IMG/VR virus record: IMGVR_UViG_3300029866_000016
Coordinates: 1 to 41,506 of that record
Origin: a virus
DNA length: 41,506 bases
Direction: 5' to 3' (one strand)
The stretch's first letter is position 1, and every line of letters begins with the position of its first letter. The notes beneath the pieces are model-generated. The model searched no databases and was not told where the DNA came from. It was given only the letters and a program-made list of their open reading frames with translations. This document shows, piece after piece, positions 2,140 through 36,273 of the stretch. A program made the position numbers and the translations under genes.

Positions 2140-2290
2140 CCGCTTGCGCTTCATCGCGCAGCTCAAACAAACGCTCAGGTGTAACTGGGCCGAGTTCACG
2201 CTCTTGTGCAAATCGAGTTGCACTAATGTTGTAAGATTCGAGTAGACGTAAACCCGCTTCGGCAACTGCTAGTATTGCTACAGCATTCAT
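2114..2290 (-). CDS. Small protein (58 aa) at the end of the lysis cassette, function unknown
   Basis: Not in the ORF track because it is under 60 aa. ATG at 2290-2288 overlaps the upstream TGA (ATGA) and is preceded by aaagagg. Sequence: MNAVAILAVAEAGLRLLESYNISATRFAQERELGPVTPERLFELRDEAQAAIDLIGAD. Its 3' end overlaps the convergent polymerase 3' end by 26 nt. Confidence 0.45.
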   Translation of the reverse strand: MNAVAILAVAEAGLRLLESYNISATRFAQERELGPVTPERLFELRDEAQAAIDLIGAD

Positions 2291-2655
2291 TGTGATACCT
2301 CTTTTCTGATTAGTTGGGTGATAGATAGTGCACTAGATATTTTAGATTGCGCCCCAGTCTGATCGACAACACATGCTGCACTAACTGTAACAATGCACAT
2401 CAACCCCTCAGCTTGTCTCACTGAGTCGGCAGCAGTTTGCAATCGGTTTTTAATCCTCAGCGCTTGTAAACCCGTGATACTCTTACTCAATCTCGCAAGC
2501 TCTACTTGCTTTGCTGTTTCGGAGATTTGGATATAAGCAAAGGCAATGCCTTCAACTGGACTATTGATTTGAGGGGGTGACACACATGCCACACTTAGCA
2601 GTAATACGACTGCTAGCATCATATTACGCATTCTTTTTGTCCGGAAAAAATGCAC
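2287..2655 (-). CDS. Putative spanin-like lipoprotein / lysis accessory protein
   Basis: Signal-like N-terminus MMLAVVLLLSVAC followed by VSPPQ (imperfect lipobox), then a helical region. It sits directly after the holin. Internal Met codons (2631, 2622) are more likely starts than 2655. Confidence 0.35.
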   Translation of the reverse strand: MHFFRTKRMRNMMLAVVLLLSVACVSPPQINSPVEGIAFAYIQISETAKQVELARLSKSITGLQALRIKNRLQTAADSVRQAEGLMCIVTVSAACVVDQTGAQSKISSALSITQLIRKEVSQ

Positions 2656-2797
2656 CGAGAAGTCCCACGCCTGCTAGTCCAATGACTACGATTGATTCAA
2701 TTTGTTCGGGTGAAAGCATCACCCCAAATGACATTAGCAGTGCAATAATTCCACGCCACGTCGATGCTTCACTTGCTCGTTCTAATAAATATTTCAT
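2624..2797 (-). CDS. Putative holin (57 aa, two TM segments)
   Basis: MKYLLERASEASTWRGIIALLMSFGVML...IVVIGLAGVGLLGAFFPDKKNA has two hydrophobic helices and a charged C-terminus. The ATG at 2797 lies 7 nt after GAGGG within the endolysin stop region. The ORF-track start at 2827 would overlap the endolysin. Confidence 0.6.
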   Translation of the reverse strand: MKYLLERASEASTWRGIIALLMSFGVMLSPEQIESIVVIGLAGVGLLGAFFPDKKNA

Positions 2798-2801
2798 AAT
2801 T

Positions 2802-3353
2802 TTAACCCTCATTGTCGTCGTATGCACGGCGATACCAGCCGCGCTTGTATTTTCCCATCATGGGTTTTTTAGTAATAATCATCCGATATACAGCCGCTTG
2901 CTCAGACCTAAATGCTGTTAGCAATCGAGCATTGTCGAGGTCGTTAACTGCATTTAGACTTTTGGGGCCAAACTTACCATCACTAACTAAATACCTTCCG
3001 ACGGCCCGGCAAGCGCGTTGTATGCAACGGTTAGCTTGAGGGTGTCCCATATTGACCGCAGTATCAAAAATCTTATTAGTAACCCCCTGATCGCAGATAT
3101 ATTTGTAGTTAGTATTCTTAAAAAAATATCGAAAGTAAAAATTATAAGCATCATCATGGTCTGCTAATTTAATATCATCAATATCAATATCCCCGTCACC
3201 ATCAATATCAAATCTCAAGTCATTAGTCTTAGCTAGTGTGCGTAACGATATCCCCCACTTTGTTGCACCGCCGGGGTCGTCAGGGTCATTGGTAAATTTG
3301 TGACCACCCTCTCGCGGCAGCATAAATTCAAACGCAGGCTTAAACTCAGACAT
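2802..3353 (-). CDS. Endolysin, GH108-type muramidase with C-terminal peptidoglycan-binding-like region
   Basis: N-terminal LPREGGHKFTNDPDDPGGATKWGIS matches the GH108 EGG...D.GG.T..GI signature. The C-terminal DGKFGPKSL...YR... resembles PG_binding_3. It is followed by the holin. Confidence 0.8.
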   Translation of the reverse strand: MSEFKPAFEFMLPREGGHKFTNDPDDPGGATKWGISLRTLAKTNDLRFDIDGDGDIDIDDIKLADHDDAYNFYFRYFFKNTNYKYICDQGVTNKIFDTAVNMGHPQANRCIQRACRAVGRYLVSDGKFGPKSLNAVNDLDNARLLTAFRSEQAAVYRMIITKKPMMGKYKRGWYRRAYDDNEG

Positions 3354-6627: not shown

Positions 6628-6804
6628 ATGAGAGTGGGGACATTAAGAGAGTACATTGTCAAACATCACGAGGGGGTGCAAGCTAAATTTGCTAGAGCAA
6701 ATGATGTTGACCCACCACAGGTGACGCAATGGATTAACGGTCAGTTTTTAGTGATTGATCATGTGATGTATAGCAAGCGCCGGGAATTGATAAAACCGAA
6801 ATGA
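6628..6804 (+). CDS. Cro-like HTH protein (58 aa)
   Basis: Not in the ORF track. MRVGTLREYIVKHHEGVQAKFARANDVDPPQVTQWINGQFLVIDHVMYSKRRELIKPK aligns by eye with the lambda Cro layout (TLKDY...A...V.QS.I...I..G..I.L.I....Y....KP). RBS is gagagg. Its stop overlaps the next ATG (ATGA). Confidence 0.55.
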   Translation: MRVGTLREYIVKHHEGVQAKFARANDVDPPQVTQWINGQFLVIDHVMYSKRRELIKPK

Positions 6805-7043
6805 ACATAATCATAGAGTATATTTGGTATCGTGGATTTTATGATAATGATAACGTTTTAGGTGAGACGAGGTTGACTAGTCTTGTCAGGTCTAGGATTG
6901 GGGTCAAATCGGCAATTGAGAAATGGGTGAAGGAGTGGTTGAGCGTGGGTTATATCGAAATTATCACTATCAACACCATTTACGCAGACGACGAGATATA
7001 TTGCGAGATTGATTCAAAACGATTTGACGCTAAAATGGTATAA
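6801..7043 (+). CDS. Hypothetical protein (80 aa), second gene of the antisense cassette
   Basis: ORF coupled to the Cro-like gene by an ATGA overlap. It is AT-rich, and its 3' end overlaps the convergent baseplate W-like gene by 14 nt. Confidence 0.45.
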   Translation: MNIIIEYIWYRGFYDNDNVLGETRLTSLVRSRIGVKSAIEKWVKEWLSVGYIEIITINTIYADDEIYCEIDSKRFDAKMV

Positions 7044-7395: not shown

Positions 7396-8168
7396 CAGCT
7401 TGGACCATCAGTTGTTTGTGTGCCACGATCAACACCAGTATGTACATGATCAGAAAATGTCAGTCCGTCAATGGTGGTCAATTCTAAAGCAGTAAGCACT
7501 TGACTGACATTGACAAGGCCTTGTATTGTAACATCTCCATTAATATTAAGACCGCCTGGCGCATCAATTGTGACGCCACCCGCTGAGTTGATTGTTATGC
7601 GTGCACTACCTGTCGATAAAGTAATGATACCACTGTCGACGGATATCACGCTGTCGCCGACCATGATCACCGCGTCGTCATCCGTGATCGACATTCGTAC
7701 GCTGCGATCACGGTTACGTAGTTCAAGGCCTTGGCTAAAATAGTTAGCCAAGGCCACTGGTGCTGGATTAGCACCCACAATCGCCAGACTATCCGTGATG
7801 TGATGTGATCGCGATTGCACGGGTTGTGCTGGGGATTGTACACCACTATTATCAACCCAGTTATCAATCGATCTATCACACACTGCTAGCAATACTTGAT
7901 CACCTGGGCGAACTGGCAGTGTGAGAGCAAACCCCGCACCGTGGGCATAAGGCATAACTAACGGTACATGCACAACCTCAGGCATATCTACAGTTATTCG
8001 TTCGTCGTCAATAGTGACGTATCGTCGGATATTTGGTTGTATTACCGCTAACTGGTCAGTGCTATTAAAGCTTACAACAGTGCCTGGTGTGTGGGTTCGT
8101 GCCCGTGATATCTCACGCCGCACAGTTTCCAGTAGTGCCCCTGATTCTGATTGCCCGCGCAAATCCAT
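7395..8168 (-). CDS. Baseplate central spike (gpV / gp138-like)
   Basis: N-terminal OB-like region (GTVVSFNSTDQLAVIQP...RPGDQVLLAVCDRSIDNW), beta-helical repeats (ITINSAGGVTIDAPGGLNINGDVTIQG) and a C-terminal HVH motif as found in spike apex metal sites. Confidence 0.7.
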   Translation of the reverse strand: MDLRGQSESGALLETVRREISRARTHTPGTVVSFNSTDQLAVIQPNIRRYVTIDDERITVDMPEVVHVPLVMPYAHGAGFALTLPVRPGDQVLLAVCDRSIDNWVDNSGVQSPAQPVQSRSHHITDSLAIVGANPAPVALANYFSQGLELRNRDRSVRMSITDDDAVIMVGDSVISVDSGIITLSTGSARITINSAGGVTIDAPGGLNINGDVTIQGLVNVSQVLTALELTTIDGLTFSDHVHTGVDRGTQTTDGPS

Positions 8169-9061
8169 TATACAACATCCAGTATTTTAAATGCTCGGGT
8201 GCTCATAACCCAGTCGTGATTATATGTAGCGCCTGAAAATTCAATGCTGAAAACTTTATACACACCGTCGAGCATTGGGTTACTAATACTTGTTACTCGC
8301 ATTTGGTCACCTGGTCGCACCTCGGGATTTAATATTGAGTCAATAGTCACCCCGTTATTATGTTGCATTGCGCCGGCTAATGTAGGTGTAATATTGATTA
8401 GGTTTCGATTTTCCGCATTAATTTCAAAAACTCGGTCAAAAGCGCGGTTGTCCGATATCGCCTGAAATCGTCCGTCTTGAATCGACCAGGTGAAGCCATA
8501 TTGGTTTGCTAAATTGTCCAACTCATTACTTGATCTATCTGATACAGTCAACCCACCACTTGACAATATTCCGTCGATATCAATTCGTCCTAATTCTACA
8601 CCCGGCATATCGCCAACAATAGAACGCACGAGTGTGGAAACACTTTGCCCACCTAAAAATGTTCGGTTAGTAACTCCTTTTGTAATGCCGCCGAATCCAC
8701 CTAATACATTTAGTTTGGTGACATACTCAGCACCATCTTTGGTGGTTCTCGCATTTAGCACACCGCCCTGCATTAGCAAACTTAACCCAGTGTTAGCCCA
8801 CCCTACACGTATTCGTACGCGTGATAAGGTGGCTCGAATACGTTCGCGACTTTCGGCACGCATGTTATAGATAATAATTTCCGCTGCATTAGCTGAGGAC
8901 TGTAAATATCTTTTAACATTAAACTCAATTGCTAAATCATCGCGACCCCCGTCACTAAAAATACGCAAAGCCTCTGAACTATTCCCACCGCCGACGTCAT
9001 CCGCCAGTGGTCCAATGAGTAGCTCAATATTGCGTATAAATGGATTATTAGGTGGCTGCAT
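8168..9061 (-). CDS. Baseplate hub-like protein
   Basis: Lies directly upstream of the spike gene. The likely start MQPPNNPF at 9061 overlaps the upstream stop. The ORF-track N-terminal extension to 9139 is probably not translated. Confidence 0.45.
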   Translation of the reverse strand: MQPPNNPFIRNIELLIGPLADDVGGGNSSEALRIFSDGGRDDLAIEFNVKRYLQSSANAAEIIIYNMRAESRERIRATLSRVRIRVGWANTGLSLLMQGGVLNARTTKDGAEYVTKLNVLGGFGGITKGVTNRTFLGGQSVSTLVRSIVGDMPGVELGRIDIDGILSSGGLTVSDRSSNELDNLANQYGFTWSIQDGRFQAISDNRAFDRVFEINAENRNLINITPTLAGAMQHNNGVTIDSILNPEVRPGDQMRVTSISNPMLDGVYKVFSIEFSGATYNHDWVMSTRAFKILDVV

Positions 9062-9557
9062 TAAGGTTAATGGTGTAAACCAATCCCTGATCCGTGCGTG
9101 ATGGTGGAAATATAAACTGTAAATCCTCACCACTAACACTAGTTAGTGGGTCATCGTCAATCACGTCGGATAATGACCCACTAACTGCATTAAGTATACT
9201 GGTTGGGATTGCACTTATTGTCACACTTACAGCCACCAAATTTGATGACTGTATGAGGTCTAGCACTCGGCACGACGCACTGAAAATACCCGGCGGATAG
9301 GTGTGACTAATGACTGGGGTGGCTGACTGTATTTCGCCCGATCCGTCACCAGGTAACACTGCGTATGTAAGGGTATCATTTTCAGGGTCTGTTGACGCTG
9401 ATAGATCAAATGTGACGGCTATGTCATTACGCGAAGCCTCGACATTTGAAGCGACTACACACGTCGGGGCTAAATTAATTACGTCACCGACTTGGAAAAA
9501 CAACCCATCAGCAAATAGCTCGTCAGCAAATAGCCCGTCAGCAAATAAGTTTATCAT
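9048..9557 (-). CDS. PKD-like domain protein with N-terminal LFADG repeats
   Basis: FDLSASTDPENDTLTYAVLPGDGSG...HTYPPGIFSASCRVLD matches the PKD pattern (FD.S.S.D....L.Y....GDG.....H.Y..G). Start overlaps the upstream stop (TAATG). There are three 15-nt repeats at 9505-9549. Confidence 0.6.
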   Translation of the reverse strand: MINLFADGLFADELFADGLFFQVGDVINLAPTCVVASNVEASRNDIAVTFDLSASTDPENDTLTYAVLPGDGSGEIQSATPVISHTYPPGIFSASCRVLDLIQSSNLVAVSVTISAIPTSILNAVSGSLSDVIDDDPLTSVSGEDLQFIFPPSRTDQGLVYTINLNAAT

Positions 9558-11485
9558 TACGGAGCAGTACGGATCGGGTTAGTAATGCCATCACCACTAA
9601 CTACATTATCATTAAACGCTTTAGGGTTACTGTCAATAATCCCTGGCAGCGTGAATGTTAATTGATCCGTCTGATCCCGGATAGCTGCAATTGCTGCTGG
9701 ATCAAAACTGGTATTATCGATTGCATATCGAGATGTATCGACAACTGTGACAGCCCCGCCGGAATTATCTTCCAGATCAAAAAATCCAGCAATCGTAATG
9801 GTACCGCCGACACAATTTGCATTAATTGTAATTAGTCTACCAGCCCCGTCGATGCTGACATTATCGCCCACTTTGAGATTGAGAATTTCCACTGATCCAG
9901 CATATCGGCGCATATTTAAACTTTTAATACCTACTCCGGTGAAATCTATAAAAGGATGTGTCAGCCCCGCATCAGTCGAGCGTGTATCAATATAGTCATA
10001 AGTCCCCGCATCAGTCAGGGTGATTGTCCCGCCGATACCACAATCTACTAACGAGTGTAGGCCAAGCGAGTGGTCGGTAAGTCTGCACCCCTCGTAGCAT
10101 GTCAATATAGAGTTATCACCCAGGTCATTGCCTGTAATTTGTGCACCATGTATGAGTGAGCCCGCTACATTTCGCCCGCCCAAATCCACAGCATAATCGT
10201 GACCAAAAAATTCAAACCCAGCATAGGCTTGATCAAGCGTAAAAACCGACCCCGGTAGTGCATGCAGCAGTGTACTATTCAAGCCGTCCATGATTGTGCG
10301 TGCTGATGCCAGCACACTAACTGGGTTATCAAAAGTGCCATCATTATATAACACTGTCCCTGTATTATTTCGGTTAGTGTCGATCCAAACTTGACCGCCT
10401 ACATATCCAATAATCTGCTGTGACGCCACGCCCTCAGCGAGTAATTCATCAACGGTTAAGGTCGCGCCGGTCAAACCAGACCCGTCAATGCGCAAGAACA
10501 CTAACCCAATATCAGCACCGGTTCCGGTGTGTCGAGATAACAGGTTTAGCACACGCACGACATTAGCAGCACCGGTCTGGCCCACTAACTCACCGTATGC
10601 GTCCCAGGTTGTACCGTTCCAAACCGAGAAATTCAAGATATCATTATTGCCGGTTAAATGCCCTGTAAAAGTTATCGACCTTGCAGTTCGTGAGCCACCA
10701 ATTGAAATTTGGTAAACCACATCAATAGCACCACCAACATCATTAACAATGTGGTCATTTCCTCCAATAAAATGGGTATCCACAAATGTGTTGGTCTGAG
10801 TGCCGATAAAACTAACACCATTTAGTGCCCCGCCGGTATTGTCCGCGTTGACTTCAAAATTGAGTCCACCACCAGAACCCCCTACTGATGAAACATTATC
10901 GGCGCTGGCTAATGCAACTCTCACACTATTCCCTGCGGTAACGACAAAAGGGGCTGGGTCACTATCTAGTGTTATTTGCCCTGAGCTAGCAACATACGAT
11001 GCTAAACTCACCGTCGCAATGTCCTCAGCAACTGACGCATCACCTATAATCACATCGCTACCGGTGGGGTAGGACGCGTCAAACGAACTGCCATTAGTGA
11101 GTGTAAAAACAGTAGGACTTATTACCGTCAAGACTGTGGTGTCAATCAGTACTGCACCCTCGGTAGTATTTGCAGCGATCAATTCAAACTCACCTGCGAT
11201 CCCAATGGGGTTGAGTGCGGAAATAGTTACCGAGCAATATGCAGTATAGTCACCAACCGTATAGCCTGCCGACGTAGGTATAGTCACTTCATACGCGCCG
11301 TTTGGATACGCCGCATTAGTTAGTAAAAACGGGGTTAAGATTGCTATAGGTGCATTAGATGCTGTATCGCCTTTTCGCCGAACATGAACCAACGGTGACG
11401 CACCATCTCCTTGACTACCTACGTCTGTGTTTGATGCAAACGCTAAGCGAACCGTGGCACCCAATTCTCTGATTTTATCTGTCAT
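9557..11485 (-). CDS. Large tail fiber / tailspike-like protein (642 aa)
   Basis: Long Gly/Thr/Asn-rich protein in the tail module. The C-terminal half has beta-helix-like periodic segments (GAQITGNDLGDNSILTCYEGCRLTD...). Confidence 0.55.
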   Translation of the reverse strand: MTDKIRELGATVRLAFASNTDVGSQGDGASPLVHVRRKGDTASNAPIAILTPFLLTNAAYPNGAYEVTIPTSAGYTVGDYTAYCSVTISALNPIGIAGEFELIAANTTEGAVLIDTTVLTVISPTVFTLTNGSSFDASYPTGSDVIIGDASVAEDIATVSLASYVASSGQITLDSDPAPFVVTAGNSVRVALASADNVSSVGGSGGGLNFEVNADNTGGALNGVSFIGTQTNTFVDTHFIGGNDHIVNDVGGAIDVVYQISIGGSRTARSITFTGHLTGNNDILNFSVWNGTTWDAYGELVGQTGAANVVRVLNLLSRHTGTGADIGLVFLRIDGSGLTGATLTVDELLAEGVASQQIIGYVGGQVWIDTNRNNTGTVLYNDGTFDNPVSVLASARTIMDGLNSTLLHALPGSVFTLDQAYAGFEFFGHDYAVDLGGRNVAGSLIHGAQITGNDLGDNSILTCYEGCRLTDHSLGLHSLVDCGIGGTITLTDAGTYDYIDTRSTDAGLTHPFIDFTGVGIKSLNMRRYAGSVEILNLKVGDNVSIDGAGRLITINANCVGGTITIAGFFDLEDNSGGAVTVVDTSRYAIDNTSFDPAAIAAIRDQTDQLTFTLPGIIDSNPKAFNDNVVSGDGITNPIRTAP

Positions 11486-12630
11486 AATGTCTGACCTTTA
11501 AATAAATTATGCCCTAGTATATTATCTTTAAATAGAGGTGTCGAACGCGTGGTCACGGGAGGCATCGTGTCGAAAAACTCGAACCCGCCAATCGTACCTA
11601 TCGCTTGGCGGGTTGTGCCCACAATATCCACAGTTAAATCAACGCGTGGGTCAATTTGAGCCGGGACTAATACGCCATTTTGTGTAACAGTAAATGCGTT
11701 TTCCCCAGCGATTGAAAAATCCTGATTAACGAAATCCACAACAAATACATTGGACCCCGAACTAGGTGAGATGATCACCCCCGCCACATTGGGAATCCCA
11801 CCAATGCCAAATTTACTCAATGCCGAGGCATCACCGCTGATGTTACCAGCGCCCGTAAAATTGACTATCCCCGGTGATGATACAGGGCTTGATATACGCC
11901 AATCCAATTCGGATGGGTCAACCGCCCCTGTCGCAAGTTGCGTTGATCGAGTGTCTTGATTAATAACTATATTATTGTAAGCGTCGATTATTGCAGTAGA
12001 CATCCCGGTCAACGACACTGCAATACTACCGTTTAATGTCTCTGTTGGGAATCGACCGCAATCAATAATTGTATTGTGATAAAGATTGTAACGATAAACA
12101 TTGCCGACCCCGGAGAATCTTTGAATGTGTATTGCGGCGCGGGCAAAACCTGTTATTACGCAGTTAGCAATGGTGGCAGATTGCGATGTTGCTCCACCAA
12201 AATAAAACCCATCTTGACCACTTTGATTATTTGCGGCACGGATAAAACATGCTTGTGCAAGAAAGTTACCGGAGTTGAGCCTGAACGCCTCGTCTGACCC
12301 ACCAGCTAATGTATCAAGTGTTATAGCTATACCTTGGTACCAAACAAATCCACCATTAATCGTATCCGCGTGACCCCCTGCGTTACCGAGAATATGTGCA
12401 CCCGACCCTCCACCAAAATCTGTTGCGTGATTGCCCGGTGTGTGGGTTATCTTTATGTGGTTAGCAAAAGATTCTCCTGCCCTCGCCGGCACAACGATGT
12501 CGCCAACATAAGTCCCGGGCTCTAACTGTATTTCGTAGACCTCGGTCAGCGTTGCAGGAGCAGCGTCAATAGCGGCTTGCAAGTCGGTAAAGTCCGCACC
12601 CCCTGCCTGATTAACAACAACGATTGTCAT
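11482..12630 (-). CDS. Right-handed beta-helix protein (pectate-lyase-fold, depolymerase-like)
   Basis: Repeated segments NCVITGFARAAIHIQ, YHNTIIDC and AYNNIVINQ. The start MTIVVV at 12630 overlaps the upstream stop (TAATG). Confidence 0.6.
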   Translation of the reverse strand: MTIVVVNQAGGADFTDLQAAIDAAPATLTEVYEIQLEPGTYVGDIVVPARAGESFANHIKITHTPGNHATDFGGGSGAHILGNAGGHADTINGGFVWYQGIAITLDTLAGGSDEAFRLNSGNFLAQACFIRAANNQSGQDGFYFGGATSQSATIANCVITGFARAAIHIQRFSGVGNVYRYNLYHNTIIDCGRFPTETLNGSIAVSLTGMSTAIIDAYNNIVINQDTRSTQLATGAVDPSELDWRISSPVSSPGIVNFTGAGNISGDASALSKFGIGGIPNVAGVIISPSSGSNVFVVDFVNQDFSIAGENAFTVTQNGVLVPAQIDPRVDLTVDIVGTTRQAIGTIGGFEFFDTMPPVTTRSTPLFKDNILGHNLFKGQTL

Positions 12631-13382
12631 TATGAGATGCCCATAACTTCTATGGTTACCCACCTAACTGGAGTTAGTTCAAACCAGTCTAAATTGATTG
12701 CTCCGTTGTCTATGTCCAGTCGCAGTGTGTAGCGCCCGGCAGGCAAGAAAATCAGCCCCGCATCTTCGATTGCCCACACATCCCATGCACCGGTTGATGG
12801 TATGATTCCGGATGACACATAAACCTGAACACCGTCAACACTAAAACTCAAGTTAACAGGCGCGTTGGGTTGCTCAACCCGCGCATAGCGCGCAGTTACT
12901 TGATACAGTGCGGTGTCATTGACAACAACCTCATATTCTAGCCACTCACCTGCTTGCGTCCAGCCGACGTTAAAGCCACCTGTGTCGCCAGTTAGATTTT
13001 GGATATCTACGCCAAAATCATCGCGATACAGCCCTCCTCGGTTACTTTCCGGTGTTGAATCATTAGCTGTGGTATAGTCTTCAAATTCAATTCTGCCTGG
13101 CACTAACTGTAAGTAGAGTGGCGCCATTTCGGACTCCACACATATGACATGGCCGCTAATACCATCGGCATTTGTGTATTCGTGATAGCGAAACCTACCA
13201 TTGAGTCCAGTCGCATGACTGAAATCCCCACACTCATCGCCGACTATGGCGCGTGCTATTGCCCTGCCACTAATAACCGAGATTAGTGGCCTTGTTTCAA
13301 AAGATCGGTTCGGTGCAACCACTGTATTAGATAATGCGAGGGTAGAGAATAAAAGTAGAAACACTGTGCATATAATTTTCAT
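12630..13382 (-). CDS. Secreted CBM6-like carbohydrate-binding protein
   Basis: Sec-type signal MKIICTVFLLLFSTLALS|NT. The C-terminal ~130 aa RIEFEDY...GWTQAGEWLEYEVVV...YQVTARYA...PSTGAWDVW...LPAGRYTLRL...INLDWFEL match the CBM6/35 pattern. Confidence 0.65.
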   Translation of the reverse strand: MKIICTVFLLLFSTLALSNTVVAPNRSFETRPLISVISGRAIARAIVGDECGDFSHATGLNGRFRYHEYTNADGISGHVICVESEMAPLYLQLVPGRIEFEDYTTANDSTPESNRGGLYRDDFGVDIQNLTGDTGGFNVGWTQAGEWLEYEVVVNDTALYQVTARYARVEQPNAPVNLSFSVDGVQVYVSSGIIPSTGAWDVWAIEDAGLIFLPAGRYTLRLDIDNGAINLDWFELTPVRWVTIEVMGIS

Positions 13383-13990
13383 GGTGTCATCCTGTGTGTT
13401 ACTGCGTGGTACTTAATCTTAACGCGCTCCATTGCACCATCTCTCACCATGCGACTGATTACCTGCCCTACACTTTCTCGACAACTACCTATCGCTTTTG
13501 CCAGTGCAGTTATGTTTATTTTAAACCCAGTGTCTGCCGATATGGCATCTAGTTTGCCGCAGACCCATTTGACATTTTCATAGCAGCTGTATACGGTTAG
13601 TCTCGATGCAAACGTCATCTGATCTGAGATAAATGTAGCATACTGAGCGTCATCAGCCTTGCATCGCAACAGCTTTGATTTGAGAATCGCATGGATATAA
13701 AATCCCTCGGGAACGAATATAACATCCCCTGCTACAACCACGCACGCACTGCCATTAGTATCATGCGAAATCGCCGAAACCGCGCCTTTTTGGACAAAGT
13801 AAGTCCCAGTTAATAAACTGTGCCTGTTTTTTTGGATTGTTATCTCATTCACAGCACCCTCAATAATCTGAGTGTCAGGTAGCACCCTAGCTCTGATTTT
13901 ACTCAAAGCACCAATCTTTCGGGTGCATGTTTGGAGCTGTGCTATCGCATCGTCGCACATTCGCTCAATTTCGCTATAGTCTAGTTTCAT
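13379..13990 (-). CDS. Crp/Fnr-family-like transcription regulator
   Basis: Beta-barrel-like core (YFVQKGAVSAISHDTNGSACVVVAGDVIFVPEGFY) plus a C-terminal HTH ITALAKAIGSCRESVGQVISRMVRDGAMERV (Crp-type G.sREsV.r.l..l...G). ATGA overlaps at both ends. Confidence 0.6.
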   Translation of the reverse strand: MKLDYSEIERMCDDAIAQLQTCTRKIGALSKIRARVLPDTQIIEGAVNEITIQKNRHSLLTGTYFVQKGAVSAISHDTNGSACVVVAGDVIFVPEGFYIHAILKSKLLRCKADDAQYATFISDQMTFASRLTVYSCYENVKWVCGKLDAISADTGFKINITALAKAIGSCRESVGQVISRMVRDGAMERVKIKYHAVTHRMTP

Positions 13991-14568
13991 AATAAAAATG
14001 GATCGGCGATTATTTCGCTAATCGAGCTGTCACCCACTACCTCAACTCCAATAATATCAGTCGCTAGTATACCAAAAAGAGGGCGGGATAGAACTATAGA
14101 TTGATCTGCAGTCGACTGTGTAAATGTCTGAGTGTTTAGTATGACACCACCTTGGGTTATGTTTATTATGTTGACTGTAAATGTCGGGGTCGGTGGTGCG
14201 ATAGCACCAATGTCATCGATTGTCACATTTAACTCAGGTATGGTATCGCTTGCCACAACCTCGGAATCTAAAAACTGCACAACGTCAGCAACGTTGCCCA
14301 ATGTATCAACGCCTCGATTTTCCGCCGTCATTCTGATCTGCTGAAATAATTGAGTAAGGTGTGGATACGCGCTAACTATATTTATGCGATCTAACAGGCT
14401 TAAGCCGACAACAAGTACTTGACCATTGCTGTCAAGAATATCAACCAACCATTTATTTAATGCACTGTTGAATGACGTACGGAATTGGTACTCGCCGATA
14501 CCCTCGATAAAATCAACAGTAACTAATCGTGCGCCGTCGTCGGTTAGTGGTATGACTTGCAGAGTCAT
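13987..14568 (-). CDS. Hypothetical tail/baseplate-module protein (193 aa)
   Basis: ORF in the tail operon between the post-TMP gene and the Crp-like gene. I recognise no motif. Confidence 0.4.
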   Translation of the reverse strand: MTLQVIPLTDDGARLVTVDFIEGIGEYQFRTSFNSALNKWLVDILDSNGQVLVVGLSLLDRINIVSAYPHLTQLFQQIRMTAENRGVDTLGNVADVVQFLDSEVVASDTIPELNVTIDDIGAIAPPTPTFTVNIINITQGGVILNTQTFTQSTADQSIVLSRPLFGILATDIIGVEVVGDSSISEIIADPFLL

Positions 14569-15129: not shown

Positions 15130-16686
15130 TTAGTTAACCACCGCCGCGTTGAGTCCGGGGCTGTTAATCTGCTGTGATTGCACTAGTGATAGTTCACGCT
15201 TAATAATTTCGGCAGTTCTACCAGGGTTAGCGGCGCCGCTAACATTAATAACTATATTAGTATTGTTAGCACCCCCCTGCATATTGCTAATATTACGAGT
15301 AGCTTGTGAGCCGATAATCTCAGTTAGTGGCTTTACAAACCCTAACCCGGCTGAGGTTGGTACACCTGTATCATCAGAGGCTCCAGCCGACAGTAAGAAG
15401 CTAGGTATGGGTAAGCTGTCAATTAGACTGCCCCATTTTGTAGACACAATTGCGACGGCCTTGTCAATCATTGCACCGAGCACATCAAGGCCTATAATTT
15501 TTGACCAGTCAAGCTTAGGTAAATTAACTAAAGATTTAAGTTTATTAATGATTTTATTGATAGTCAATTTTACGATTGCGAATAACAATAAAAAGTAGTT
15601 TTTTATACCCTCTACGAGTTTACCCGTGACACTTTCACCGCCCTGAAACGCTACGATCATATCTTCAATTATGAGGATGACCGCTACGATGGCGGCAACC
15701 ATTATTAAAAAAGGTGCAGATGCAATCAACACCTTGACCGCTATCAAGCCCAGAATTGCAGACAGGGCTACGAGGGATACGGTCACTACCTGGGCGATTT
15801 TATCCGCATCAAACAGTCCGTCAGTAAAACCACCCAGGTTAGGGATCACTGACAATAAATTATTGACAAGCGTACTGACTATTCGTGCAAAATTCTGGAA
15901 GCCAAAGACGACACCTTGAATAAATGTTGCTAAGCCGCTTATTATTATCTCTTTATTCGCCACAACTAATTCAGTTAGGCTTTCGACAAGTGGGGTGAGT
16001 ATGGGTAACAGTGAGACAGCTATGACCGTCGCCAGCCCAGTCATAGCTGTGCGCATTGATACGAGCTGTGCATTATATGCAGCAGCCTGAGCGGCATCAG
16101 CGGGTGATACGATGCCCCCCAATCGCCTAGCCTCAGCACGTAGCGCTTGGATATTACTACGACCTTGTTGCAATAATAGTATAGTGTCTTGACCAAATCC
16201 CAACTTACTTGCCAAATCTCGACCTGTCAGAGTGTCAAATTTAGTTAGACCGTCTGCGACGTCGAGAAATAATTCCTCGAAGCCTTTAAGATTACCCTGT
16301 GCATCACTGATTGACACGCCGAGGCGGGCTAATTCTTCACTGGGCTGTCCGAGGCGTATGCCACCAACGGTCGCTGCAAAGGATTCAAAGTCGGAACGCA
16401 GAGAACTAACTGAACCACCCGCTCGTTTGATGCCAAACTCAAATTCTTGGAGTGCCTCAAAGCCGAGATCAATGCTTTTCGCAAACTTGGCACCGTCGTC
16501 AACCTGACCAGCAATCTTATCTGCAAATGCAACAACTGCAACGGTGACAACCGTCAACGCGGCACCCGCCGCTAGAGCGATGGTTTTAACTTTATCAAGA
16601 CCGGCTGACAGTTTGCGTGAGGCGCCGTCATTACCGCTATCACTTTTAAGTGTTAGTAATGTGACCAGCTCGTCAACTATCGCCAT
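15130..16686 (-). CDS. Tail tape measure protein
   Basis: 518 aa, Ala/Leu-rich helical protein with hydrophobic blocks. It lies directly downstream of the frameshifting chaperone pair. Confidence 0.75.
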   Translation of the reverse strand: MAIVDELVTLLTLKSDSGNDGASRKLSAGLDKVKTIALAAGAALTVVTVAVVAFADKIAGQVDDGAKFAKSIDLGFEALQEFEFGIKRAGGSVSSLRSDFESFAATVGGIRLGQPSEELARLGVSISDAQGNLKGFEELFLDVADGLTKFDTLTGRDLASKLGFGQDTILLLQQGRSNIQALRAEARRLGGIVSPADAAQAAAYNAQLVSMRTAMTGLATVIAVSLLPILTPLVESLTELVVANKEIIISGLATFIQGVVFGFQNFARIVSTLVNNLLSVIPNLGGFTDGLFDADKIAQVVTVSLVALSAILGLIAVKVLIASAPFLIMVAAIVAVILIIEDMIVAFQGGESVTGKLVEGIKNYFLLLFAIVKLTINKIINKLKSLVNLPKLDWSKIIGLDVLGAMIDKAVAIVSTKWGSLIDSLPIPSFLLSAGASDDTGVPTSAGLGFVKPLTEIIGSQATRNISNMQGGANNTNIVINVSGAANPGRTAEIIKRELSLVQSQQINSPGLNAAVVN

Positions 16687-32863: not shown

Positions 32864-32938
32864 TAACGGATGACTCACAACTAACTAAATTTGATTGATA
32901 AACGGCTCGCGAAGAGTTTTACACAAAAGAGGCAGAAA

Positions 32939-33934
32939 ATGAAATTTGATATCTTAAATCGGGTCGGTAATGAAGTGAAATTTACGGCAGACATAGACTG
33001 TAGTGAATCATTGTTAGAGGCGCAGAAATTGGGTTTAGCGGTGAAGTGGGCGGTGAGGTGGGTGATTAGAAGTCGTACCGAACTGCGTGGTGCCGATCTG
33101 AGAGGCGTCGACCTGAATAATGTCGACCTGAGTGGGGCCGACCTGAGTGGTGCCGATCTGAGAGGCGTCGACCTGAGCGGGGTCGACCTGCATGATTCCG
33201 ACCTGCATGATTCCGACCTGCATGATTCCGACCTGCATGATTCCGACCTGCGTGGGGCCGACCTGAGCGATTCCGACCTGAGCGGGGCCAACCTGAGCGG
33301 GGCCAACCTGCACGGGGCCAACCTGCGCGGGGCCGACCTGCGCGGGGCCGATCTGCGCGGGGCCGACCTGAGCGGGGCCAACCTGCGTGGGGCCGACCTG
33401 AGTGATTCCGACCTGAGCGGGGCCAACCTGAGCGATTCCAACCTGCGCGGGGCCAACCTGAGCGGGGCCAACCTGAGCGGGGCCAACCTGCGCGATTCCG
33501 ACCTGCGCGGGGTCGACCTGCGCGGGGCCAACCTGAGCGGGGCCAACCTGCGCGATTCCGACCTGCGCGGGGTCGACCTGCGCGGGGCCAACCTGAGCGG
33601 GGCCAACCTGGATAATTCCGACTGGGTACCAAAAATCGAAAACATCCACGCCACCGTATATGCCGCTGCGAAGGAGGGAGATGCTCTTGACATGGATCAA
33701 TGGCATACATGCGAGACCACCCATTGTCGGGCGGGATGGGTGGTCACTCTTGCCGGGGCGGCGGGGAAGGTTATGGAGGGTGTTTACGGGACGAGTGCGG
33801 CGGCAGCATTAATCTATATGTCTAGTGATCCGGCTATGAAAAAGATACCAAATTGGTTAGCGTTGGATGAAGATGCTCTGCAAGATATGCAAGAAATGGC
33901 AGAAGCGGAACAACTAACTAAAGAGGCAACATGA
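32939..33934 (+). CDS. Pentapeptide-repeat protein (35 consecutive repeats) with Cys/His C-terminal domain
   Basis: Start MKFDILNRV follows aaagagg. Repeats are [RSH][GD][ASV][DN]L x35, then ...WHTCETTHCRAGW.... The ORF-track 5' extension to 32891 starts at a TTG. Confidence 0.85.
   Translation: MKFDILNRVGNEVKFTADIDCSESLLEAQKLGLAVKWAVRWVIRSRTELRGADLRGVDLNNVDLSGADLSGADLRGVDLSGVDLHDSDLHDSDLHDSDLHDSDLRGADLSDSDLSGANLSGANLHGANLRGADLRGADLRGADLSGANLRGADLSDSDLSGANLSDSNLRGANLSGANLSGANLRDSDLRGVDLRGANLSGANLRDSDLRGVDLRGANLSGANLDNSDWVPKIENIHATVYAAAKEGDALDMDQWHTCETTHCRAGWVVTLAGAAGKVMEGVYGTSAAAALIYMSSDPAMKKIPNWLALDEDALQDMQEMAEAEQLTKEAT
33086..33610 (+). repeat. 15-nt periodic coding tandem array (pentapeptide repeats) with perfect internal duplications
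   Basis: catgattccgacctg x4, perfect (33191-33250). 33481-33540 is identical to 33541-33600 (60 nt). Confidence 0.9.
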
Positions 33935-34745: not shown

Positions 34746-35148
34746 ATATGACGAGTGTGAATTAACAGCTATAGAATACACAAACAGCGGCACGACAGTC
34801 GAATCTTTCGAGGACGAATTTGACGGCGTTAAATTTTACTATGTGTGCAAAATAAATGGAGTGAGTTGTCGAAGCGAAATTAAGTATCTATCGCACAAAG
34901 CGGCTGTAGACGCAGGTCGAGAGTTTATTGACACCCACAAGGTGGTTAGTCCATTTAATAAATGGCTTTACCGACACAATTACGAGGTCAGGAGCGTCGG
35001 TGACAACTTTTATTGGGTCGCGAGATTCTATGGCGAGAATCTAACTTCCGATGCTGTAGATAGTCTCACACTTGCGGACAGTAATGGGCGAGAGTTTCTA
35101 TGCAAAATATATGATTTAGAAAACAACCAAAAAGAGGCAACAAAATGA
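34738..35148 (+). CDS. Hypothetical protein (136 aa)
   Basis: ORF overlapping both neighbours by a few nt. Confidence 0.45.
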   Translation: MDKYDECELTAIEYTNSGTTVESFEDEFDGVKFYYVCKINGVSCRSEIKYLSHKAAVDAGREFIDTHKVVSPFNKWLYRHNYEVRSVGDNFYWVARFYGENLTSDAVDSLTLADSNGREFLCKIYDLENNQKEATK

Positions 35149-35786
35149 AAACTACAGCATTAGGAATTACAGCACTACTATTAGTTATTATTGGATCAAA
35201 CGATGCTGTTGCATCACGATACGGATATCAAAATAACTACAATTATAATAAGAGCAGCTCACGCAGCAATGCGAGCAGTGACTCTCTAAGCACAAGCCGG
35301 GCAACCGGTGGGAATGCTCTCAGCACGGCAAGCGGGTTTGGCGGCAGCTCTGACAATCAGGTAAATATCGGCGGCGACACGACAACTTTTCGTTTCCCCG
35401 TTTCGTCTGCGTTTGCACCCCAGGCGATCAACAATGCAGAGTGCGGGCGTGCTGGGGGCATTGCTGGACAGCTTAGAAATTTCGGTGGCAGCCTTGGGTT
35501 ACCACTCAGCAACAACCTAGATTGTGATGCCGATAATGATGCAAATTGGCTTATAACATTGGGGTACGTGGATGAAGCAATAAAATCAAAATGCCAAAAA
35601 AGATCAATGCGACGCGCACATGGTGGTGATGCTCGCGGCCGGAAATCGCGTGCGGACAATTGTTATAACGAGCTTAAGACACGGCGTGTCGCCCAGGTTG
35701 CACCGACAAACTCCAGCAATGCCTCCGCAGTCTCCGACATCGACGAAAAAATATCCCGTGCTTTTGCGGCATCACAGAAGAAATAG
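35145..35786 (+). CDS. Secreted Ser/Gly/Asn-rich protein (213 aa)
   Basis: Signal MKTTALGITALLLVIIGSNDAVA|S, a low-complexity region, four Cys, and a basic C-terminus. Confidence 0.5.
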   Translation: MKTTALGITALLLVIIGSNDAVASRYGYQNNYNYNKSSSRSNASSDSLSTSRATGGNALSTASGFGGSSDNQVNIGGDTTTFRFPVSSAFAPQAINNAECGRAGGIAGQLRNFGGSLGLPLSNNLDCDADNDANWLITLGYVDEAIKSKCQKRSMRRAHGGDARGRKSRADNCYNELKTRRVAQVAPTNSSNASAVSDIDEKISRAFAASQKK

Positions 35787-35815: not shown

Positions 35816-35887
35816 ATGCATAAGATATTATTGGGCATTGTTGCCGTAGCTGTAATTACACTCACATACTATCCCGTGCCCGCGTGA
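35816..35887 (+). CDS. Hydrophobic micropeptide (23 aa)
   Basis: aggagagagaatcATG. Sequence MHKILLGIVAVAVITLTYYPVPA. Its TGA overlaps the GTG start of the VRR-NUC gene (GTGA). Confidence 0.35.
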   Translation: MHKILLGIVAVAVITLTYYPVPA

Positions 35888-36273
35888 GCGAATCGGCAAT
35901 ACAATCAGCGATACGATTAGCAGCTCGCGACAACGGGCAGTTGCTATGGCGCAATAATTCAGGTGCATACTTTGACAAGCGTGGAGTGTTAGTTAGGTAT
36001 GGACTGGGCAATACGAGCAAAGCAATAAATAAAGTATTAAAGTCGAGTGACTTAATTGGAGTCACTCGGGTTAACATCCAACCGCATCACCTGGGACGCA
36101 CTATAGCGGTATTCACCGCACTTGAAATAAAGCAGGACGTTAACAAGATTAAGTCACCCCGAGAACTAGCACAAGCTAACTATATTAATCTTATCGGAGA
36201 CTGCGGAGGCATTGCTGGATTTTGTGACACTATAGAGGATGTGGAAATTTTAATAAGGGAGTTTATACAATGA
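35884..36273 (+). CDS. VRR-NUC domain nuclease
   Basis: WRNNSGA...SSDLIGV...FTALEIKQ...Q...I...GG matches the PD-(D/E)XK VRR-NUC pattern. Confidence 0.7.
   Translation: MSESAIQSAIRLAARDNGQLLWRNNSGAYFDKRGVLVRYGLGNTSKAINKVLKSSDLIGVTRVNIQPHHLGRTIAVFTALEIKQDVNKIKSPRELAQANYINLIGDCGGIAGFCDTIEDVEILIREFIQ

Follow-up and report, generated by a model that had tools for sequence, protein, structure and literature searches.

Introduction

Exported proteins by which a phage switches off its own receptor are known for protein receptors. The Llp protein of T5 and the Cor proteins of phi80, N15 and HK022 are small exported lipoproteins, absent from the virion and encoded beside the tail gene that recognises the receptor, which block FhuA so that neither infected cells nor debris capture the phage. 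Many phages use polysaccharide receptors, and to our knowledge a lectin-type masking factor for these has not been described. Here, we analyse a 41,506-nucleotide (nt) stretch of viral DNA (IMG/VR record IMGVR_UViG_3300029866_000016, positions 1 to 41,506; ‘the window’ throughout), which at about 41.5 kb represents a nearly complete phage and carries, within its tail genes, a gene pair encoding a Crp-like regulator and an exported-type lectin with a carbohydrate-binding module (CBM) of family 6/35, directly followed by a variable tail gene. Rather than forming part of the virus particle, the insert probably serves as a portable accessory directed at the surface of the host cell. Its best overall explanation, to which we assign a probability of about 0.42, is that of an accessory pair whose exported product binds an envelope glycan and blocks adsorption, following the logic of Llp and Cor.

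Two other types of exported phage protein are relevant here. Spackle (Sp) of T4, small and helical, carries a signal peptide and inhibits the gp5 tail lysozyme in the periplasm; its target is a protein and its gene is unlinked to gene 5. The late operons of lambdoid phages carry exported cargo, exemplified by stxAB downstream of PR'/tR' and by the lom and bor morons, whose products have signal peptides, are periplasmic and are released by lysis; the B subunit of Stx binds glycans. The literature searched contains no description of a regulator–lectin pair such as the one considered here. The protein family is new; the strategy of placing an exported accessory beside a receptor-binding gene is already known.

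Results

A gene pair in three phage backbones

The contigs, including the window, originate from subseafloor crustal fluids at North Pond (BioSamples SAMN07571231-45; PMC6736579). The gene order Crp-like protein, signal-peptide lectin and beta-helix-like tail protein recurs in three unrelated phage backbones. The first is an E217/Pam3-like myophage (the window, L001-L004, L009, L023 and L025-L030), the second a temperate siphophage or prophage that has Phage_tube_2, a capsid of the HK97 type, a tape measure and an integrase (L018-L020, one copy being flanked by host genes), and the third a phage with a GpA-type terminase, Phage_portal_2 and an S24 repressor (L011-L017 and L006), where the three genes follow the early genes and precede the terminase. 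In the North Pond phages examined the pair always lies immediately 5' of the one variable tail gene. The coupling of the lectin ORF to both neighbours, proposed in a preliminary description of the locus, is borne out by the sequence: the lectin ATG overlaps the TGA of the upstream 203-amino-acid (aa) Crp-like open reading frame (ORF) as ATGA, with an AGGA Shine–Dalgarno motif 9 nt upstream, and the lectin TAA overlaps the ATG of the tail gene as TAATG. The 203-aa gene in turn overlaps the preceding baseplate plug gene by ATGA, and from position 14568 down to 9048 the genes abut or overlap with no intergenic space.

Two contigs from different samples (L021 and L022) share the myophage backbone but lack the Crp-like and lectin genes. 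There the plug gene is followed by a 46-nt gap, a 396-aa beta-helix-like gene and the 642-aa gene, so that the beta-helix-like, 642-aa and PKD genes all stay in place. Between the plug and beta-helix-like genes both contigs carry an identical 17-codon relic ORF (L021:8103-8156), MKLDYSEAVSGGWGYQK followed by a stop codon, in which MKLDYSE corresponds to the first seven codons of the Crp-like gene and is joined to ten codons whose end overlaps the tail gene as ATGA. Read from its sequence, the relic is a deletion scar left when the pair was lost as a unit. Since sister phages have deleted the pair and retain this scar, the pair is dispensable. The preliminary description had seen a functional unit in the regulator, the secreted lectin and the depolymerase-like protein, and the shared order in three backbones strongly supports a unit; it is, however, really a tight pair, the tail gene recombining independently of it and also existing without it.

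Within the tail module no stretch diverges more than the pair. Between the window and its sister L009 protein identity is 52% for the Crp-like protein and 59% for the lectin, against 74-97% for the flanking tail proteins, and nucleotide identity, counted in 200-nt bins, drops from 70-82% to 60-67% at positions 13900-12701, returning to 80% at 12700-12501. Across seven complete sets of the three genes, pairwise identities of the Crp-like protein and the lectin correlate with r = 0.77, those of each with the tail gene with 0.44-0.51. The tail gene is also mosaic, that of L023 being nearest to the tail gene of a GpA-terminase phage. The L023 contig shows further peculiarities (L023:2712-5383): its 642-aa homologue has 673 aa and a divergent C-terminus, and downstream of it come a 216-aa He_PIG Ig-domain protein and then, in place of the hub, reverse-strand genes, which would make the contig either a rearranged or a recombinant relative.

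Dispensability is also what would be expected of a moron acting in lysogenic conversion, in which the Crp-like protein drives the lectin from a prophage and perhaps reprogrammes surface or biofilm genes of the host, so that the surface of the lysogen is changed and the lytic cycle is not concerned. Two of the three backbones are temperate, as judged by the integrase and host flanks of L018/L019 and the S24 repressor of L014, a regulator together with an effector is a typical moron layout, and in the GpA-terminase phages the three genes follow an intergenic region with promoter-like and terminator-like elements. The pair of the window lacks the flanking promoter and terminator of its own that mark a moron, however: a scan for such signals around it returned nothing convincing, there is no intergenic space and all four junctions overlap. 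No integrase was found among the window ORFs scanned, the G+C content of the pair, overall and at third codon positions (GC3), is not atypical when inspected for a signature of horizontal transfer, and there are no flanking repeats. Such a moron would furthermore leave the strict adjacency to one tail gene unexplained, and we consider this explanation unlikely.

In the GpA-terminase backbone the intergenic region that precedes the three genes measures about 210-230 nt (L014:7560-7680; L016:470-575; L006:9100-9215) and contains a sigma-70-like promoter (TTGACA...GATTAT) with a hairpin and a T-run about 100 nt further on; the layout is reminiscent of PR'/tR', with which lambdoid late operons begin.

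Structure of the exported-type lectin

The 250-aa lectin consists, in order, of a Sec-type signal peptide, a two-cysteine domain, a CBM6/35 module and a conserved C-terminal peptide (Table 1). By inspection and a crude scan, the predicted signal peptide, MKIICTVFLLLFSTLALS, has a basic n-region (MK), a hydrophobic core of about 13 residues (IICTVFLLLFSTL) and a c-region with small residues at -3 and -1 (ALS|NT). Despite sequence drift the hydrophobic core and the small -3/-1 residues are kept in all eight full-length homologues, where the c-region reads ALS, SLS, ALA, VSA, ANA or AQA; the signal peptide recognised in the preliminary description thus appears to be both real and conserved. The same scan finds a signal-peptide-like N-terminus in only 3 of the 85 window ORFs, another being the lipoprotein-like gene of the lysis cassette. 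A second signal-peptide-like protein of 213 aa (MKTTALGITALLLVIIGSNDAVA|S..., positions 35145-35786, plus strand) with no Pfam match lies among the replication-side genes. The lectin has no lipobox, Cys5 being too near the N-terminus. In PHROGs and PADLOC there is no match for the pair or its neighbours, and neither strand in or around the lectin locus contains an RNA family, tRNA or meaningful repeat.

The domain that follows the signal peptide had been overlooked in the preliminary description. It is a small all-beta domain of about 70 residues with the motif TRPlk..IGR..VG..C...Y.YH..TN..G..G.a.C., in which C51 and C81 are invariant, and it has no Pfam match (SH3 included) and no sequence match in the PDB. 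Against 1.84 billion representative proteins a profile of this N-domain finds seven proteins at E <= 0.001, of which two are family members, one (P0027, NHL-repeat-like) is apparently spurious and four are distant relatives: P0025, P0026 and P0028, small proteins with a signal-peptide-like start, and P0024, which has two copies of the domain. Structure prediction, suggested in the preliminary description, gave a mixed outcome. The AlphaFold2 model of the full-length lectin (9 sequences) is poor, with a predicted local distance difference test score (pLDDT) of 50, and was left out of the fold search; the model of the N-domain (12 sequences) is usable, with a pLDDT of 77, a predicted template modelling (TM) score of 0.61 and six strands. 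The best Foldseek matches of this model in the PDB and a viral library are SH3b domains (2krs, 4krt, 5d76 and 5leo), at TM scores of 0.4-0.56 and E >= 0.1 with none significant, so that the resemblance to SH3b may serve as a lead and provides no classification.

The assignment of the C-terminal half to CBM6/35, made in the preliminary description from motifs all of which are present, is confirmed by Pfam above the gathering thresholds: residues 119-237 match CBM_35_2 at 9.4e-15 (55.1 bits, cutoff 23) and CBM_6 at 4.5e-14 (53.3 bits, cutoff 28.9). Among CBM6 chains of the PDB the full-length lectin matches 8zvk at 1.7e-20 and 2y8k/5la2 at 7e-19, figures that improve to 1.9e-21 and 9e-20 for the module alone; 5g56 and 1uxz are also matched. 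Residues W141, W200 and N230 align to Tyr33, Trp92 and Asn121 of 1uxz, which we take to be the sugar-binding residues of cleft A of CmCBM6-2, and are kept in eight of the nine family members. Representative genomes of 185,579 species and Joint Genome Institute (JGI) metagenome contigs, scanned by pattern, yielded ordinary CBM6 modules of cellular enzymes and no full-length relative; the module was probably captured from such enzymes.

In the lectin only binding-type modules are found and no catalytic domain. As the nearest CBM6 relatives sit in carbohydrate-active enzymes of bacterial polysaccharide degraders, and a CBM6 is normally found on the same chain as its catalytic domain, the module could be a partner acting in trans, the candidate catalytic beta-helix being encoded by the next gene: a released lectin would bring that enzyme, or the virions, to polysaccharide outside the cell or to the biofilm matrix, or would aid the use of polysaccharide by the host. 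Prophage-encoded carbohydrate-active enzymes are the stated topic of one paper (PMC13507307). No catalytic domain has been demonstrated in the neighbour, however, the two proteins would be made in different compartments, and the pairing with a Crp-like regulator and with the N-domain, which persists even where CBM6 is missing (contig L065, below), would be left unexplained. This makes such an auxiliary role improbable.

The C-terminal tail lies outside the CBM6 fold. Its decapeptide WVTIEVMGIS is kept as a peptide across eight loci, and because the codons vary synonymously this conservation is not just that of the ribosome-binding site of the next gene, an explanation that is thereby ruled out.

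The Crp-like partner

The assignment of the first gene of the pair as Crp-like, also made in the preliminary description, holds, and for the DNA-binding part the sequence comparisons indicate that the name is correct. Taken alone, the window protein matches HTH_Crp_2 at E = 0.0035 (17.7 bits, below the cutoff of 27). A profile of 10 Crp-like homologues (A3) matches CLP (3iwz, 6.4e-5), Vfr (1e-4) and CAP in the PDB at the proper C-terminal position, Crp/FNR-family chains making up 35 of the 40 listed profile matches, including the top 24, and among the ten members Pfam recognises HTH_Crp_2 in seven and Crp (PF00325) in five. The recognition helix reads SREMVGR in homologues, where S-R-E-x-V-G-R is kept, and CRESVGQ in the window. 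No cNMP_binding match is obtained for these proteins by Pfam or by the PDB profile, and the sensor region presents only a short beta-rich stretch with a G..f.V.kG.V pattern. A reading of the 203-aa protein as a tube-fold baseplate cap like gp37/gp38 of E217 was rejected because the gene order is that of Pam3 and not of E217, and because the profile matches are mainly to Crp-family helix-turn-helix domains. Two palindromes of the window lie one mismatch from a Crp box, at 35851-35866 (intergenic, upstream of the ORF at 35884-36273) and at 13838-13853 (inside the Crp-like gene itself).

The association of regulator and exported domain is also found outside the North Pond family. On an unrelated contig (L065:3178-3965), which carries in addition Nmad5 and metallophosphatase genes, a 163-aa Crp-like homologue (hhalign probability 97%, hmmsearch 3e-18) overlaps the start of P0025, a 103-aa protein with a signal peptide and the N-domain and no CBM6. 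Because this pair exists without CBM6, the core unit is a regulator with an exported N-domain protein, CBM6 being an added targeting module, and it is the two-cysteine domain that seems to be the part coupled to the regulator. P0026 and P0028 have no Crp-like neighbour.

The tail gene beside the pair

The 382-aa protein encoded directly downstream of the pair has its true start at 12630 (MTIVVVNQAGG...) and not at the GTG at 12663 chosen by the ORF-listing program. It has no match in Pfam, PHROGs, PADLOC or cultured phages. A profile of six sequences aligns weakly from residue 4 with pectinesterase 1xg2 (E = 0.22), Pfam Pectinesterase is matched weakly at E = 0.047 by the L011 homologue only, and parallel beta-helix coils can be discerned by eye. 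The preliminary description had called the protein a pectate-lyase-fold, depolymerase-like protein; on the strength of these pectinesterase matches, at E = 0.05 and 0.22, that label is at most putative. Word-based searches return three homologues of the Crp-like protein and five of the beta-helix-like protein, the latter being too few for a useful structure prediction. What is conserved among the tail genes is the N-terminal part of about 370 aa from residue 1, followed by variable C-terminal extensions, so that the proteins measure 382-396 aa in the myophages and, elsewhere, 660-846 aa; Ig or fn3 domains occur in some.

This linkage of the pair to the conserved N-terminal part of the tail protein, together with the fast divergence of both genes of the pair, as in an arms race, could suggest a periplasmic inhibitor akin to Spackle, which would bind the beta-helix tail protein of a superinfecting relative during its passage through the envelope, rather than a glycan of the host, the conserved C-terminal strand possibly providing a docking peptide. 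Both recognisable modules of the lectin, however, are of a type that binds glycans or the cell wall, the identities of lectin and tail gene are only weakly correlated and the tail gene shows mosaicism with respect to the pair; moreover P0025, which consists of the N-domain only, has no demonstrated tail-gene neighbour, the L065 contig ending there. We regard an inhibitor of this kind as quite unlikely.

Position in the tail module and phage background

The genes of the window include those for the terminase, portal, capsid, sheath, tube, tape measure, a GH108 endolysin, a helicase and a primase-polymerase. The tail genes follow the order of the minimal myophage Pam3 (PMC9942802), that is tube initiator (Dit_like), plug (Pam3_gp18), hub (E217_gp41), spike (Gp138_N-like), sheath initiator, wedge (Baseplate_J, Wedge1) and fibre, the sole departure being the five genes between plug and hub that encode the Crp-like protein, the lectin and the 382-aa, 642-aa and 169-aa PKD proteins (Table 1). 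Homologues of the hub have 297-300 aa, so that its true start in the window is probably downstream of the listed GTG.

Table 1. Position of the gene pair, of the parts of the lectin and of the adjoining tail genes in the window.
Feature	Coordinates	Strand	Remarks
Crp-like gene, 203 aa	13379..13990	-	First gene of the pair; coiled N-terminal segment, short beta-roll-like region, C-terminal Crp/Vfr/CLP-type helix-turn-helix
Exported-type lectin ORF, 250 aa	12630..13382	-	Conserved gene
Predicted signal peptide, residues 1-18	13329..13382	-	n-h-c layout; cleavage ALS|NT
N-domain, about residues 19-85	13128..13328	-	New domain
CBM6/CBM35 module, residues 97-239	12666..13094	-	Pfam and PDB CBM6 chains
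C-terminal tail, residues 240-250, RWVTIEVMGIS	12633..12665	-	Conserved; outside the CBM6 fold
382-aa tail-module gene	11482..12630	-	Beta-helix/pectinesterase-like from residue 1 (putative); directly follows the pair
642-aa protein, unknown family	9557..11485	-	In the plug–hub block; about 80% conserved in sister phages with or without the pair
169-aa PKD/Ig-domain protein	9048..9557	-	Pfam PKD_4 5e-7; last gene of the inserted block
Pam3 gp18-like baseplate plug	13987..14568	-	Pfam Pam3_gp18 2.4e-6 and phrog_349; upstream edge of the insertion
E217 gp41-like baseplate hub	8168..9139	-	Pfam E217_GP41 1.4e-7; downstream edge of the five-gene block

As the lectin gene lies in the tail module, between plug and hub, and its translation is coupled to that of structural genes, its product could be an extra adhesin on the tail or baseplate, whose N-terminus remains uncleaved or which is picked up after lysis by means of the C-terminal strand; carbohydrate-binding modules are common on phage fibres, and the C-terminal decapeptide is conserved. 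Against such a virion-associated lectin stand the conserved Sec-type signal peptide, the clean deletion in L021/L022 with the neighbours intact, the constant pairing with a DNA-binding protein and, in the GpA-terminase phages, a position after the early genes and just upstream of the terminase, not among recognised tail genes. The signal peptide, the clean deletion that occurs in nature and the placement outside the tail genes in one backbone make this the least likely of the explanations considered. The Pam3/E217-type baseplate parts, from tube initiator, plug, hub and spike to sheath initiator, wedge and fibre, are moreover all assigned to genes other than that of the lectin, and the view implied by the preliminary description, that the lectin is not a virion part, gains in this respect: with the gene cleanly deleted in sister phages, an obligatory virion component is very unlikely.

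Among cultured phages relatives are scarce. DNA searches and tblastn with the lectin, plug, beta-helix-like and 642-aa proteins gave no match in 50,697 phage records, and the sheath alone gave cultured-phage matches, at about 30% identity. Rfam and tRNA scans of the window are empty. The hosts are uncultured bacteria of the subseafloor aquifer, probably belonging to the Thiotrichales, from which one metagenome-assembled genome carries a homologue of the 382-aa tail gene.

Several other features of these phages may be recorded. The tape-measure gene of the window (15130-16686, minus strand), compared with L001:6535-8262, L009:6535-8262 and L021:5404-6972, differs in the length of its product (518, 522 and 575 aa) among otherwise similar phages, which by sequence implies tail-length variants within one population. 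Between the sheath-initiator and Baseplate_J genes two small genes of 58 and 80 aa lie on the opposite strand (6628-7043, plus strand), the 58-aa product resembling by eye a small helix-turn-helix protein; at the same place the sister phages have small reverse-strand genes of 77/68 or 80/58 aa (L001/L002) or a single 63-aa gene (L021/L022). The early region encodes a 347-aa pentapeptide-repeat protein (32891-33934, plus strand; Pfam 4e-65), overlapped by spurious ORFs on the opposite strand. The lysis cassette (2287-3353, minus strand) comprises the endolysin, with GH108 and PG_binding_3 (2802-3353), a holin-like ORF of 67 aa (2624-2827) containing two hydrophobic segments, and an ORF of 122 aa (2287-2655) that begins like a lipoprotein and is a possible spanin, its lipobox being non-canonical (SVAC).

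Discussion

Domain content, conservation, translational coupling, portability, dispensability and elevated divergence are the observed properties from which an account of this locus has to start, and of the anatomy of the pair and its status as an accessory we are confident. That the lectin serves to block adsorption is put forward more tentatively; the receptor masking or superinfection exclusion suggested in the preliminary description is likewise a plausible but conjectural role. In such a scheme the lectin would be made late, together with the tail genes, and exported by Sec to the periplasm, where its two cysteines could form a disulphide; it would not be built into the particle. In the periplasm, or on debris after lysis, it would bind a polysaccharide of the envelope, the most plausible being the glycan with which the neighbouring tail protein deals, and infected cells and lysis debris would then cease to capture phage, as with Llp of T5 and Cor of phi80 and N15, a sugar receptor taking the place of the protein receptor. 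The Crp-like partner would control the pair or surface genes of the host.

Several observations weigh against this account. In the P0005 clade (L001-L004, L007 and L009; gene at 10001-10774), an abundant allele with a 6-residue insertion after the N-domain and an otherwise conserved sequence, all three cleft-A residues are replaced (W141A, W200L and N230R), and therefore sugar binding through that cleft cannot be universal. The siphophage variant L018 has a weak signal peptide that contains no basic residue. Late, coupled expression with no promoter or terminator belonging to the pair leaves little time for superinfection exclusion in the classical sense. Crp boxes (TGTGA-N6-TCACA with up to two mismatches) are not enriched in the window, 26 being found where 22.7 are expected, and the enzymatic or receptor-binding nature of the tail gene is putative rather than established.

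A differently worded and more doubtful version of the same idea sees in the pair a portable accessory class made of a Crp-type regulator and an exported two-cysteine protein, here armed with CBM6, which would coat either the receptor polysaccharide or the peptidoglycan and polysaccharide layer, render infected cells and debris non-adsorptive and act as the glycan-directed counterpart of Llp and Cor, travelling with its cognate tail gene among myophages, siphophages and other phages. In a bolder variant the regulator may form a signalling pair with the exported protein, whose C-terminal peptide is conserved. For adsorption blocking by an envelope-glycan binder, the explanation that we prefer, this compact, recurrent and dispensable cassette, found in three architectures and with natural deletions, is a concrete candidate for how phages avoid being trapped on sugar-coated debris, and the natural phages with and without the pair offer a ready-made comparison. 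The analysis also defines a new small secreted-type domain and an unusual phage-borne Crp-type regulator inside tail operons.

The closest parallels to known systems differ from one component to the next. The CBM6/35 module belongs by sequence to the same fold family as those of bacterial glycoside hydrolases (CtCBM6, 2y8k/5la2; CmCBM6-2, 1uxz; and 8zvk), with E-values of 1e-9 to 1e-21, but is phage-encoded, lacks a catalytic domain and is fused to the two-cysteine N-domain and the C-terminal strand. The N-domain, modelled as a small six-stranded beta-barrel, may recall the cell-wall-binding SH3b domains of endolysins and autolysins, of which its invariant cysteine pair is not a feature. The regulator resembles Crp, Vfr and CLP (3iwz, 2oz6 and 1g6n) in its size and in its C-terminal helix-turn-helix, with an R-E-x-x-G-R helix at the right distance from the C-terminus; it differs from them as a phage protein with an apparently shortened sensor region after a coiled segment, with Q for the last R in the window, and in being encoded inside a tail operon.

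With the exported cargo of lambdoid late operons the locus shares, in the GpA-terminase phages, a position of the three genes just after a promoter-like and terminator-like region, whereas it has no homology to toxins or outer-membrane proteins, and in the myophages and siphophages the pair is embedded among the tail genes through overlapping stop and start codons and has no transcription signals belonging to it. Spackle provides the precedent of a phage protein that has a signal peptide and acts in the periplasm against tail functions of an incoming phage, from which the present lectin differs in its binding modules and its strict linkage to a tail gene. Sequence similarity to Llp or Cor was not found (no PHROG or PADLOC match), and theirs are lipoproteins directed against the protein receptor FhuA, unlike the lectin described here, with its glycan-binding modules, no lipobox and a Crp-type regulator as partner. 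The likeness would be one of logic only: a small exported-type accessory gene placed beside a tail gene, perhaps to the same end.

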